Shown: positions 16,326 to 20,550, numbered from the stretch's first letter. The stretch is 32,000 bases of DNA from Saccharolobus solfataricus (GCF_900079115.1 NZ_LT549890.1:2370001-2402000), one strand, 5' to 3'. Notes: generated by a model from the letters alone, not told the origin. Made by a program: numbers and translations.

Positions 16326-16336
16326 GATTTATATAG
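16326..16336 (+). promoter_or_regulatory. Candidate TATA box of the pilin operon
   Basis: gatttatatag is centred about 30 nt upstream of the ATG at 16362. That spacing fits a leaderless or near-leaderless Sulfolobus transcript. Confidence 0.4.
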
Positions 16337-16361
16337 AACTATAATGTAGAGTGTATTAGGT

Positions 16362-16796
16362 ATGGATATGGCTAGTAGAAGAAAGAATGCAAGAGGATTG
16401 TCAGATGCTGTAACTGCATTAATATTAGTAATAGCATCAGTGATAATAGCTTTAGTGGTTGTAGGATTTGCTTTTGGGCTATTCGGAGCATTTACAGGGC
16501 AAGGAACAGTGACACAAGTAGGAACAGCAACATTAAGCGCTAGCACCTTGACTCTAACGGTTACTTTAAAGAATACTGGTGCATCCACACAAGTTACTGG
16601 GGTACTTATAAACGGAAACTCAGGTAGTGTATCAGGAATGACCACCATAAGTGCTGGTGTAAATACATATACAATTACAATTTCAATAGGCAGCATTAGT
16701 ACTACATTAAGGGGTCTAGTTGGTTCTACTATTTCACTAACATTAATACTTTCTAATGGAGAAACAGTAACAGTAAGTGCAATAGTCACAAGCTGA
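16362..16796 (+). CDS. Archaeal type IV pilin (class III signal peptide; Aap-type adhesive-pilin-like)
   Basis: 144 aa. N-terminus [12 protein letters not shown]|[30 protein letters not shown] has a charged leader, an RG/LS prepilin-peptidase (PibD-type) site and a hydrophobic helix of about 30 residues. The C-terminal beta-rich domain is extremely Ser/Thr-rich. Confidence 0.8.
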
Positions 16797-16833
16797 AAAA
16801 GAGGAGAAAAAAGGTGAAATTTTTGTATTCTTC

Positions 16834-17535
16834 TTGTTTATTTTTCTTTTTCAATTAGCCCTTTCATTAACTTTAGTAGCGATGTCTGAATCTTCTTTAA
16901 TTTCTGGTACATTTGTAATCTATAACGGTACCTCAACTTATTATCTCCAGAATGGGTCTATATTATTTCAAAAATTTTCTATAATTCAAGTTATAAACAA
17001 GACCTTTAACAACGGAACAGTTTTAGTTGGTATAAGTATAATATCATGGAACACATCAATGCAAAGTAAGTTTTTGTATTCAGTAATGAACTCTACTCTC
17101 CCATTACCATTTTATTACGTCTCACCCTATTTACTAGGAGAAGAAAACATTAGTGTGAATGAGGTAGAACTCTTTTACGTTAATCATACTAACTCTTATT
17201 ACGTTTATCTTGGAAAAGGTAATATAGATGGTGTAATTATAAAAACCTATTTTTATTTTAAGCCTGATGGTCTGGCGGATAAGGTAATTAACTTACAGCT
17301 AGGTGCAAATGGTAAGATAGTAAGTGAGACTACATTAGCTTTATGGATAACGAATTTCAATAATACGAGTATTGGGATACCTCACTTTAAGGGAATTACA
17401 ACTGCAAGTGCAAGTAATGAAATATCTGTTAGTCTTTTTCCGGTATATGCTAAAATCATGGAATATATTATAATGGCTGGGGCCATTCTTGTTATGATAA
17501 TCCTTTTATTTAGGGGTACTAAGCGGGTAAGATAG
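16834..17535 (+). CDS. Secreted or C-terminally anchored sequon-rich protein, paralog A (unknown function)
   Basis: 233 aa. Hydrophobic N-terminus, C-terminal TM (IIMAGAILVMIILLF) followed by basic residues, and at least 10 N-x-S/T sequons. The TTG start is uncertain; the next in-frame ATG is at 16882. Confidence 0.6.
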   Translation: MFIFLFQLALSLTLVAMSESSLISGTFVIYNGTSTYYLQNGSILFQKFSIIQVINKTFNNGTVLVGISIISWNTSMQSKFLYSVMNSTLPLPFYYVSPYLLGEENISVNEVELFYVNHTNSYYVYLGKGNIDGVIIKTYFYFKPDGLADKVINLQLGANGKIVSETTLALWITNFNNTSIGIPHFKGITTASASNEISVSLFPVYAKIMEYIIMAGAILVMIILLFRGTKRVR

Positions 17536-17537
17536 TT

Positions 17538-18233
17538 ATGTCTTCTCCTCTTTGGTTTCTCTTCGTGATAGTCTTATTTCCTCACGCCTTTGTAGAGTAT
17601 TCGCTTCATATCCAAGTAGATTATAATAACCAAGTCTACCATTTATCAGAACTTCTTTTTGAAAACGTTACAAAAGTCTACTATAGTAATTCAACCTTTG
17701 TTTATAATCTGACTGTTTATGTTCTCAATTTCTCTCAGATTCTAACCTCTTCTGCAATTCTAGATAATTTTTCTCTACCAAAAACTTTTTTCTACATTCC
17801 TAACCCTGGCGAACCAGTAGTTGAAAGAAGTGTTATCTTATCTTTACTATCCTCAAATGATTCTAACTATATATACTATGGGAAGACTTTTATAGGTTAT
17901 GTTGAGCTTGAGTATTTTTATTATGTTAATTCAACTGGAGTCCCATATAAGATCATTATCCTTCAAATAGGGGAGAGTGGGCAGTTAGTCAGCAATACTA
18001 CATATATTTTAGTGAAATCAAATCTTGTAAATCCTAACGAGCAACCAATACTCCCAGAAGGCTTTAAAATTGCAAATGGTAGCGAAGTCGTTAATGTACC
18101 TATTTCTTTAGGTCTAAACTCAGCCTTAGATCAGCTGGTTGGCAAATATATAAGTTTTGTAACTCTTTTACTCGTTTTTGTATTTTTGACGGTGAGATTT
18201 TATGCATCGAGAAAGAAGACTTCAAGTAATTGA
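17538..18233 (+). CDS. Secreted or C-terminally anchored sequon-rich protein, paralog B (unknown function)
   Basis: 231 aa. Signal-like N-terminus, C-terminal TM (FVTLLLVFVFLTV) plus basic tail, and 9 sequons. Alignable with paralog A. The ATG lies 2 nt after the upstream stop. Confidence 0.65.
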   Translation: MSSPLWFLFVIVLFPHAFVEYSLHIQVDYNNQVYHLSELLFENVTKVYYSNSTFVYNLTVYVLNFSQILTSSAILDNFSLPKTFFYIPNPGEPVVERSVILSLLSSNDSNYIYYGKTFIGYVELEYFYYVNSTGVPYKIIILQIGESGQLVSNTTYILVKSNLVNPNEQPILPEGFKIANGSEVVNVPISLGLNSALDQLVGKYISFVTLLLVFVFLTVRFYASRKKTSSN

Positions 18234-20550
18234 GATAGTTATTGTAATAATCCTTTCAATATTGACACCCATGATAGCCTTATGGAAGGTTTTCTTCCAT
18301 GTTGGGTATATTTATCAAAGAGATTCTTACCCAGCTTTTTATTTAGACTCTAGGCAAGCTTCACTATCTTATCTTAATTTCCCCATGATCATGGATAATG
18401 TCTGGATGCCGGTAGTGGTTATACTGTATTTTAATCTTATCTCACCAGTGATAGCAGACTGGATAACGTACCTTTTATTTCCCTGTGCTATCTCAGTTCC
18501 ATCTATGTATTTCTCCTCTAGATACTTTTTAAACAGATACGCAAAAGAAGCCGGAGCATGGGTTAAAATTTCAGTATCTTCTATTATTGCTTTCCTTTAT
18601 GCTATAACGCCTACAGCTTACTATTACAGTCATTGGTTCAATTATGCGACATTTTACGCACTTTTACCGGCCTTGATTGCCGGTACCTTCTACTCTCTAG
18701 AGAAAGGAGGGTTTTTAGGTGCTACACTTCTTTCAATTTTCGCCTCTCTAACTACAACTGACCCTAGGGGTTTTATTTACACGTTATTTATAGTACTTTC
18801 AATTCTTCTTTTTAGGCATAAGTTAGGTGACTTGAAGGTTTTCCTCTACTCAATCCCCTTTTATATCTTACTAAATTCCAGACTGTTCTTAATTTTATTC
18901 TATGAATTCCATTCCTATTCATCAATAAGTTTTACTATTTCTAATGAACAGTTATGGTTGAATTACTGGACATTTCCACTTTTAGATTCATTAAGGGGCT
19001 TATCGTTGTTTAGACCCTTAGTGTCTTATTTATCATTCGGAAATCCGCTTTTAATATATGTAATGTCCTTCGCATTTGTTGAAACTGGAATTTTGGGTTA
19101 TATCTTTCTGAGGAAAAAGGGTTCAGTGGCTAATTATCTCTTAGGGATTTACTTATTTTTAGCATTACTAGTATCTTCAAGTGTAAACGTACTAGGGTAT
19201 AATATTACATTAAACTTAACTTATCCCTTGTTAGATTTCTTAGCCCAAACCTTTGTATACAATTATCTATGGATTTTCTTACCAACCTATTTAACTGAAA
19301 TGATATTAGCACCGCTATTTCTTCTCGTATCTCTCGTAATGGCTAAGATGTTGTCTAAATACTACCTTATTCCATTGGTTGTTCTCATAGTGTTATCTCA
19401 ATTTGCTTTTTCGTCTTCTATGGTGCTTAGTGGAAATTATTTAGGAAGTTATAATCCCGTGAGTCCTCCTCCCTTAATAGTAAATTTAGGCAGATTTTTA
19501 GAGAATCATACTATAGGTAATGTTCTCGTAGATGCTGTAGTTCCCTCGAATTGGAGTACATTTATTGGAGTATTACCTAATACAACCTCTGTTCCCTTAG
19601 TCAATACTTCTGACGTGGGGGTTATTCTGAATGAGTATGGTGTACAATATGTTGTTACTACTGTTAATGATAATTATACCTTGAGTGTAATTGATTCTCA
19701 CAAAAACGTCTTCACTCTAGTTTATAATGATTCTTACTTTTTAGTATACAAAAATAATGACTTCACATACAATATTAATTCCCCAATTTTTGTGAATTTT
19801 GAATACCCAAAGGTTCCTGATACTAATAACTCTGTTAACGTGATTCCCTCATATTTGATGTTTAATATTCCTCCAAGGTACATAGGTGGTTTTGTTGGAA
19901 ATGCCACATATGCTGAGCTTTTAGCATTGTCCGCATATAAACAAGGTATCTTGCCGGTTAAACTAAATGTTAAGCACTTACCATATCCTACTAATTTTAC
20001 AGATACAATAAACGTAAATGTATATGATGAAGAAATTTTATCAGACTTCCTAAGCATTTCATTTATTTCTGTTAGTGATACTTCATCTCTTAATTTAGGT
20101 GTGGAACCAGGTTTTTATAAGGTTGTGATAGCTTATGTCTCTGTACCTGGAGGAGGTGTTTTTGGCGTTACCAACGGTTCTTATTCGCTTTCTGTCTCAA
20201 CTTCCTCTCCAAACATTTCTATTGTGTTTTCCTATTTAGGTAATATGTTCGTCTCTAGTAGCGTAAAGTTGTTCTTTATTGGACATTCTCTATCCTATCT
20301 AATAGGTATAATGTTTATCCCCTACAACATGTCTATACAGCACGAATTTATTAGTGATAACATTTCCTCTTATCCCTATCAACAATTGGGTAGAGCTTTT
20401 GGGTATCCCTATAATGATAATGGTGTTATCTCTTTTTCAATAGTGATCAATTTAATTACTCTTTCGATTGCCGTAATTTTATTTATATCTATACAATATG
20501 GCCGAACATATTTTCGTAAGATAAATTTAAAAATATTTGGTCGGAATTAG
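18202..20550 (+). CDS. Large polytopic membrane protein (about 11-13 TM) with a roughly 300-aa sequon-rich extracellular domain and a terminal TM; possibly GT-C-like
   Basis: 782 aa. Continuous hydrophobic segments through about residue 430, then a beta-rich Asn/Ser/Thr-rich domain, then a final TM ([13 protein letters not shown]). Acidic residues sit in the first predicted external loop ([15 protein letters not shown]). Overlaps the upstream gene by 32 nt. Confidence 0.7.

Follow-up and report, generated by a model that had tools for sequence, protein, structure and literature searches.

A conserved gene cluster of Sulfolobaceae combines a type IV pilin, O-glycosylated in Saccharolobus, with a predicted GT-C-fold membrane protein: a candidate pilin O-glycosylation module

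There is ample evidence for the O-glycosylation of archaeal surface proteins, and to our knowledge the adhesive type IV pilus of Saccharolobus is its most extreme case. In Pseudomonas aeruginosa, TfpW, a GT-C pilin O-arabinofuranosyltransferase, is encoded directly after the group IV pilin gene, and tfpX, the gene of a small membrane accessory protein, comes next (10.1101/2020.04.19.049825, PMC11841053). For the Saccharolobus solfataricus pilus, extra density at seven Ser/Thr residues revealed heavy O-glycosylation, both pilus forms of S. islandicus REY15A have five identical O-glycosylation sites and no N-glycan, and glycans make up >35% of the LAL14/1 pilus mass; the pili withstand proteases and boiling guanidine (PMC7347861, PMC11178852). 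They are bound by archaeal viruses, probably as primary receptors (PMC7347861). The Sulfolobales O-glycosyl transferase was termed "currently elusive" in a 2024 paper (PMC11607397). Here we analyzed a window of 32,000 nucleotides (nt) from S. solfataricus P2 (NZ_LT549890.1:2370001-2402000), in which four close-packed genes on the + strand (16362-20550) encode a pilin, two small proteins named A and B, and a polytopic membrane protein of 782 amino acids (aa). The 782-aa protein is likely a glycosyltransferase of GT-C fold with a functional link to the pilus, and we lean towards reading the cluster as a pilin-dedicated O-glycosylation module in which this enzyme glycosylates the pilin. While the pilin was already known, the predicted GT-C-like fold, the conserved residues, the clustering and the glycan context of relatives are new.

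The pilin of the window is identical at 142 of 144 positions to the pilin of S. islandicus REY15A (PDB 8fjs/8fk0; 8fjs, E=4.7e-74). Its mature form is nearly identical to the subunit of the S. solfataricus POZ149 pilus (6w8x, E=1.7e-64) and related to that of LAL14/1 (6nav, 7.7e-50). The pilin also shows a distant relationship to that of S. acidocaldarius (8q30, E=6e-12). The class III signal peptide has a PibD site (RKNARG↓LS, after Gly12) followed by a hydrophobic N-terminal helix; the PibD motif is K/R-G/A↓L/I/F-S/T/A, and cleavage after Gly12 has been demonstrated (PMC7347861). The globular domain is 40% Ser+Thr and contains no N-x-S/T sequon. The original prediction for this DNA had pointed to very heavy glycosylation of a Ser/Thr-rich pilin in the Sulfolobus islandicus adhesive pilus, with no enzyme assigned. 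For the pilin of the window, heavy O-glycosylation and the lack of an assigned enzyme are borne out by the literature (PMC7347861, PMC11178852, PMC11607397): the 2024 structural papers discuss pilus glycosylation and assign no enzyme, and a 2026 review on S. acidocaldarius does not mention O-glycosylation. Our literature search, from which supplementary files and the 2019 LAL14/1 paper were excluded so that prior mention is possible, gave no mention of SSO2544-2548 or SiRe_2651-2653/2660-2662.

Assembly of this pilin in trans is likewise established for a close relative. In REY15A, 192 kb separate the pilin genes from those for an ATPase (SiRe_0181) and a TadC-like protein (SiRe_0180), and pili are lost if either of the latter is deleted (PMC11178852). 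The "orphan" position of the pilin, presented as a puzzle in the original prediction, is already explained by assembly through this distant pair. In line with that prediction, no T2SSE-type ATPase or T2SSF-type platform domain was detected in any window open reading frame (ORF) of ≥120 aa. It had further suggested that the insertion sequence (IS) pile-up 5' of the cluster displaced former neighbors; relatives without IS elements, however, also lack assembly genes beside the pilin.

An AlphaFold2 model of the 782-aa protein, built on 23 family members, was confident (predicted local distance difference test [pLDDT], 84.4; predicted TM-score [pTM], 0.80). Foldseek analysis against the PDB revealed mycobacterial AftD (6w98) as the best match (E=4.7e-8; TMq 0.46; 11% identity), followed by yeast and human STT3 (7oci_F, 5e-4), the C-mannosyltransferase DPY19 and Archaeoglobus AglB. 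Nine of the ten top matches were GT-C enzymes or STT3-containing oligosaccharyltransferase (OST) complexes, and the eighth was a translocon entry that is unverified; at lower ranks, Emb (12-13) and PglB (20 and 45) appeared. According to the model, the 782-aa protein is folded like a GT-C enzyme and not like a transporter. At the sequence level, it founds a family of its own. This family is very small: it comprises 28 clusters among 5.8 billion proteins, all organism-named ones from Sulfolobales, and a HMMER profile search yielded 54 representatives among 1.84 billion. Its pilin-linked subclade is confined to Sulfolobaceae. A role as an STT3/AglB-type N-OST was rejected, since the WWDxG motif is absent (0 of 23 family members), the pilin has no sequon, and these pili carry no N-glycan (PMC11178852).

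Model helices and hydropathy predict 11 transmembrane helices within residues 1-410, with the N terminus inside, an external domain (411-739) of alpha/beta fold plus a beta-sandwich matching modules similar to carbohydrate-binding modules (CBMs), and a final transmembrane helix (740-779). The long external loops comprise residues 27-81, 225-281 and 325-368, and all 15 N-x-S/T sequons fall in predicted external segments. The first external loop contains the near-invariant R40-D41, while D187-P-R189 is invariant. The conserved charged residues (D41, D187, D262, E366, R40, R189, R227 and R265) are located in or at the ends of predicted external segments; the one exception, R227, lies just 2 residues inside such a loop. 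Of the 21 members with a complete N terminus, 20 have the motif [YF]-x-R-D-[ST]-x-P approximately 12 residues after the first transmembrane helix. In AftD, K39 and D41 are essential (10.1101/2019.12.22.885152); R40/D41 are comparable to them by relative position only. Residues 240-290 are the least confident part of the model and form a highly conserved external loop (conserved stretch, 248-272), which may resemble the mobile catalytic loops of GT-C enzymes.

To describe the genomic context, synteny was built from exact-protein look-ups in ten Sulfolobaceae lineages, as a profile search of genome contigs gave only two loci. The order pilin-A-B-GT-C (the last being the gene of the 782-aa protein) was colinear in S. 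solfataricus, S. islandicus L.S.2.15, S. tengchongensis, Sulfolobus sp. E5-1-F (with B split) and Sulfuracidifex tepidarius. In Stygiolobus azoricus, Sulfolobales HS-7 and RB850M, pilin-A-B is convergent on the GT-C gene and overlaps its 3' end. In Acidianus brierleyi, B and the GT-C gene overlap by 4 nt, with a convergent pilin gene 1.2 kb off, and in Sulfurisphaera ohwakuensis, A and B are convergent and the pilin gene lies directly 5' of the GT-C gene (68-nt spacer). Thus, at least four arrangements exist among the ten lineages, and all four genes are found within about 5 kb in eight of them, the exceptions being Acidianus (A not nearby) and RB850M (the contig ends before the pilin). Clustering that outlasts at least four rearrangements is strong evidence for a functional link. 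The four-gene order, for which the original prediction had proposed a synteny survey, is conserved only as clustering across Sulfolobaceae; strict order is not kept. Furthermore, comparison of P2 with S. islandicus revealed purifying selection on all four genes (dN/dS: pilin, 0.23; A, 0.29; B, 0.25; GT-C, 0.14).

Several local deviations were observed. In Sulfolobus sp. E5-1-F, B is split into ORFs of 113 and 89 aa (L015 4362-5035), by a frameshift or pseudogene formation or by a sequencing error, and the pilin, A and GT-C genes are intact. S. islandicus L.S.2.15 harbors a second, inverted pilin copy (L007 4084-4509, - strand; 82% DNA identity to window 16320-16824) about 3.6 kb 5' of the cluster and without A, B and GT-C genes of its own. 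P2 has one pilin copy in the window; the intervening region (12256-16320) is filled with IS elements, and a 277-aa ORF (11377-12210, within 11356-12256) has the opposite orientation to that in S. islandicus. Among the loci examined, the permease gene 3' of the P2 cluster, which the original prediction placed on the same probable transcript, comes after the GT-C gene only in the five from Saccharolobus/Sulfolobus and not in Acidianus, Stygiolobus, Sulfuracidifex, Sulfurisphaera or HS-7. It was therefore rejected as a module member, being a neighbor only in Saccharolobus and close Sulfolobus spp.; it is adjacent to the cluster and possibly cotranscribed with it.

Distant relatives of the 782-aa protein (870-920 aa) are not encoded beside pilins. 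Three of the five whose surroundings were examined lie among genes for GT2, GT4, a sugar epimerase, a Wzx-like flippase and DUF2079 proteins, and this context independently ties the family to glycan biosynthesis. D41 is kept in 18 and D187 in 24 of 30 distant relatives. In Sulfuracidifex tepidarius, the pilin/A/B/GT-C cluster itself is located inside a glycosylation island (L006 454-5590 and 11255-17561), flanked by four DUF2079 genes or fragments and three GT1/GT4 genes. A second, convergent pilin gene (133 aa) is present in this island just 3' of the GT-C gene. A distant member of 960 aa (L009 6001-8883) has neither pilin nor glycosyltransferase neighbors: only Methyltransf_21 is adjacent, and a Ta1207-family neighbor suggests an origin in Thermoplasmata. 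The glycan-cluster context is thus not universal in the wider family.

Based on these data, we propose that the prepilin would enter the membrane with its Ser/Thr-rich Ig-like domain outside, where the 782-aa GT-C-fold enzyme would move sugar from a dolichol-phosphate-linked donor to pilin Ser/Thr hydroxyls. The active site would be formed by the external loops with R40-D41, D187-P-R189 and the conserved loop 248-272. Glycosylation would take place before or during pilin polymerization by the Aap machinery encoded elsewhere, and A and B would probably partner the enzyme as noncatalytic subunits or pilin adaptors. The original prediction had already envisaged a pilin modification module. Both computational checks that it had proposed, structure modelling and a synteny survey, support this idea through the predicted GT-C fold and the clustering, and its interpretation is thus upheld in part; the orphan puzzle, the IS displacement, the tip-adhesin option and the inclusion of the permease did not survive. 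A further-reaching reading, which we offer tentatively as a serious possibility, is that the cluster represents the first identified archaeal protein O-glycosylation machinery, a three-component, pilin-dedicated system in which the founder of a new GT-C family and two novel membrane subunits sugar-coat the Saccharolobus pilus.

Several points weigh against a pilin-glycosylating enzyme. The classic DxD/DDx/DE motif is missing from the first 90 residues of all members except the most divergent one (P0028), a single Asp being present instead. A sequence-level tie to any GT-C family was not found: neither the 782-aa protein (E≤0.1) nor 22 relatives and 10 distant relatives matched Pfam or NCBIfam, a PDB profile search was empty, hhalign against the DUF2079 proteins of the Sulfuracidifex locus gave a probability of 0.1%, and a UniRef "DUF2079" label on the Acidianus homologue was not reproduced. 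The GT-C assignment comes from one predicted structure, and enzyme activity of the family is suggested by fold and context. The global TM-scores are modest, 0.46 to AftD and about 0.3 to others, because the soluble domains differ. At the genomic level, the cluster contains no gene for a Dol-P-sugar synthase or flippase, T-tracts 3' of the pilin stop codon may end or attenuate transcription, and the GT-C gene is on the opposite strand in several genera, so that coexpression is not guaranteed. A family member from S. acidocaldarius was not found, which is a negative search result only; the Aap pilin of that species was reported to be N-glycosylated (PMC11607397). Finally, the roles of A and B in the module are putative.

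The 782-aa protein could also be a true GT-C enzyme with another acceptor (A/B, the S-layer, or a lipid-linked or cell-surface glycan, which it might extend in the manner of AftD and Emb) and an indirect link to the pilus, such as envelope remodelling at its exit. The best match, AftD, is a glycan-extending enzyme with CBM domains (10.1101/2019.12.22.885152), and the 782-aa protein has a CBM-like beta-sandwich; the distant relatives are encoded in clusters of polysaccharide type that have a Wzx-like flippase and lack a pilin gene. A and B, for their part, are encoded close to the enzyme and exposed outside. We nevertheless consider this explanation unlikely, since, apart from A and B, nothing but the pilin is constant across Sulfolobaceae. 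In Sulfurisphaera, the pilin gene lies immediately 5' of the enzyme gene, and the pilin is a known, massively O-glycosylated substrate without an enzyme (PMC7347861).

The strong conservation of Asp and Arg in the external loops, as in an active site and also in relatives that are not linked to pilins, the position of these relatives in glycan clusters, and the dN/dS of the GT-C gene, the lowest of the four, all make it quite improbable that the cluster encodes a nonenzymatic pilus accessory complex (an adaptor, chaperone, anchor or S-layer collar that aids recruitment and assembly of a pilin encoded at a distance from its machinery, like the TfpY-like proteins of Pseudomonas) in which the GT-C-like fold is a scaffold without catalysis. 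Such a complex would fit the missing canonical DxD motif and the assembly of the pilin in trans by machinery 192 kb away, for which an adaptor might be needed (PMC11178852). Moreover, the membrane accessory proteins TfpX/Y/Z, which are linked to pilins, have no modifying role (PMC11841053), and the (poor) model of B weakly resembles LolA-like carriers of hydrophobic ligands. That the neighbors are unrelated to the pilin and are packed by chance in a compact genome, as the equally tight permease clearly outside the conserved module might suggest, is very improbable and effectively refuted by the synteny data, namely the co-occurrence in eight of ten lineages in at least four arrangements, and this for two tiny families, A/B (16 clusters) and GT-C (54 representatives).

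Under the preferred reading of a pilin-dedicated glycosylation module, A and B are the putative partners of the enzyme. As the original prediction had it, they are paralogous (BLASTP E=7e-9; 31% over 117 aa) and glycoprotein-like. A has a signal-peptide-like N terminus, a beta-rich ectodomain, 10 sequons and a C-terminal transmembrane anchor; B has 9 sequons, a C-terminal transmembrane anchor and an N-terminal hydrophobic segment, after which the motif F-[VI]-E-Y is conserved. Neither matched Pfam or NCBIfam at E≤0.1, and their family was found only in Sulfolobaceae. Orthologues of A are present in the pilin/GT-C clusters of Stygiolobus, Sulfuracidifex, Sulfurisphaera and RB850M. Most of the small proteins can be assigned by BLASTP to the orthologous group of either A or B; the two from HS-7 are not clearly separated, and one of them, of 226 aa, has the position of A, yet scores slightly better against B. 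The AlphaFold2 model of B was poor (pLDDT 58; about 80 in the core residues 85-160), and its match to LolA/LolB-like folds (Foldseek E=6e-4, TM 0.27-0.30) was not relied on. The possibility that A and B are minor pilins, or tip adhesins as considered in the original prediction, is unlikely, since their N termini are Sec-type without a class III signal peptide and both have C-terminal anchors. In eukaryotic OST, type I membrane subunits with beta-rich ectodomains occur, which may offer a parallel to A and B.

Gene A has an anomalous and uncertain start in P2 (window 16797-16860). A GTG at 16814, preceded by a Shine-Dalgarno (SD) motif (GAGGAG, 7 nt), is shifted by +1 against the frame of the long ORF and is followed by AAA and a T5 run, and the only in-frame canonical start is the TTG at 16834. 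The arrangement recurs in S. islandicus (L007 8595-8770: GAGGAG-N8-ATG AAA AGT TTT TTT TAA, with a T8 run). Its A reading frame contains no ATG, GTG or TTG over 42 codons, yet these codons are conserved at the protein level (dN/dS 0.30). In S. tengchongensis and Sulfolobus sp. E5-1-F, A has an ordinary in-frame start. Databases annotate A as a 189-aa form without the signal peptide. This could be explained by slippage or a -1 frameshift at the run of T, by a noncanonical start, or by a signal peptide in decay.

The coordinates of the features are listed in the table below. All junctions given in the original prediction were confirmed: beyond the 37-nt spacer between the pilin gene and A, the gap between A and B is 2 nt, B overlaps the GT-C gene by 32 nt, and 4 nt separate the latter from the ATG of the permease gene. 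Furthermore, GGTGA is located 6 nt 5' of the ATG of the GT-C gene. The spacing, the overlapping stops and starts and the SD-like motifs 5' of A and the GT-C gene suggest that the cluster is cotranscribed in P2. The TATA-like box, a putative promoter element by analogy with Sulfolobus promoters, predicts a near-leaderless pilin transcript. Three T5 tracts are found just 3' of the pilin stop codon, one in the spacer (AAAAGAGGAGAAAAAAGGTGAAATTTTTGTATTCTTC) and two more at 16841 and 16847. The spacer may thus contain, besides candidate SD signals, a possible partial terminator that sets the stoichiometry between pilin and accessory proteins. In Pseudomonas, a terminator between pilA and the accessory gene tfpY sets stoichiometry (PMC11841053). 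A 176-aa antisense ORF (16259-16789, - strand) opposite nearly the whole pilin gene was rejected as a mechanical ORF, probably resulting from the biased codon composition of the pilin gene. Scanning the window for Rfam families and tRNA genes gave no hit.

Features of the analyzed window (positions counted from its first nucleotide)
Feature	Coordinates	Strand	Remarks
TATA-like box TTTATATA	16328-16335	+	26 nt 5' of the pilin ATG; read from the sequence
Type IV pilin, 144 aa	16362-16796	+	ORF and matches to solved pili
Pilin-A spacer, 37 nt	16797-16833	+	GAGGAG 16801-16806; GGTGA 16813-16817; T5 tract 16820-16824
Accessory protein A, 233 aa	16834-17535	+	100% identical to SSO2545; TTG start
Accessory protein B, 231 aa	17538-18233	+	Paralogue of A
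782-aa predicted GT-C-fold glycosyltransferase	18202-20550	+	AlphaFold2 model and Foldseek
APC-family amino-acid permease	20555-22054	+	Pfam AA_permease_2, 2e-21
IS transposases	10131-15285		5' of the cluster
Overlapping nucleotidyltransferase (122 aa) and HEPN (130 aa) genes	124-860	-	Typical of HEPN/MNT toxin-antitoxin modules
C2H2 zinc-finger-like ORF, 100 aa	22051-22353	-	Between permease and protease
Sso7d-type 7-kDa DNA-binding protein	22633-22839	+	Between permease and protease
Surface protease (1308 aa) and PNGase A-like protein (610 aa)	22982-28745		4 nt between the genes

Further along the window, the Sso7d-type gene and the C2H2-like ORF keep their position in S. islandicus, S. tengchongensis and Sulfolobus sp. 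E5-1-F. The protease is pro-kumamolisin/sedolisin-like and has 35 N-sequons and a C-terminal transmembrane helix. The pair that it forms with the PNGase A-like protein is conserved in S. islandicus and possibly serves extracellular glycoprotein degradation.

The locus offers a single specific gene for deletion in the tractable S. islandicus REY15A, for which the pilus structure and the glycosylated residues are already mapped. If the proposed function is true, a new GT-C family is defined, bacteria and archaea independently reached the placement of a pilin gene beside the gene of a GT-C enzyme, and a handle on the role of glycosylation in pilus stability and virus adsorption becomes available. 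The three-component system, if true, would account for the extreme chemical stability of the pilus and its virus-receptor properties.

Among known systems, the pilin belongs to the Aap adhesive pilus system (aapA/B, the AapE ATPase and the AapF platform), and in S. islandicus it is assembled by an Aap-type ATPase/TadC pair (PMC11178852); genes A, B and GT-C have not been described as parts of Aap loci. In its membrane fold, the 782-aa protein is similar to the STT3/AglB/PglB OSTs and to the protein O-mannosyltransferases PMT, which modify proteins on the external or lumenal side with sugars from dolichol- or polyprenol-linked donors, but it has neither the WWDxG motif of STT3/AglB nor an STT3 or PMT Pfam match. 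With AftD, a GT-C arabinofuranosyltransferase, it shares the combination of a GT-C membrane domain with external beta-sandwich/CBM-like modules. AftD differs in that it has three CBMs and 16 transmembrane helices and binds an acyl carrier protein; its substrate is arabinan, not protein.

The closest functional analogue is the P. aeruginosa group IV cassette pilA-tfpW-tfpX. Another Pseudomonas pilin-modifying protein, TfpO, is of the Wzy_C/O-antigen-ligase type and is not known as a GT-C enzyme. The original prediction had assigned both TfpO and TfpW to GT-C; TfpW is indeed termed a GT-C enzyme (10.1101/2020.04.19.049825), and the tfpO and tfpW products are described as structurally distinct (PMC11841053). 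The archaeal protein forms its own sequence family, and similarity to TfpW is not demonstrated. In place of the TPR domain of TfpW, it has a C-terminal alpha/beta domain with a CBM-like beta-sandwich and an extra transmembrane anchor; the motif is R-D instead of DDX in periplasmic loop 1, and two paralogous type I accessory proteins are encoded instead of one TfpX with three transmembrane helices. The likeness lies in the design. Both loci combine a major pilin gene with the gene of a polytopic GT-C-type enzyme and with one or more genes for small membrane accessory proteins, the assembly machinery is encoded elsewhere, and the pilin is multiply O-glycosylated on Ser/Thr. Each enzyme also has a large C-terminal domain on the outside, and the acidic motif of TfpW may have its counterpart in the near-invariant single Asp in the first external loop of the archaeal protein. 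In Sulfurisphaera, the GT-C gene is even located directly 3' of the pilin gene, in the placement of tfpW.

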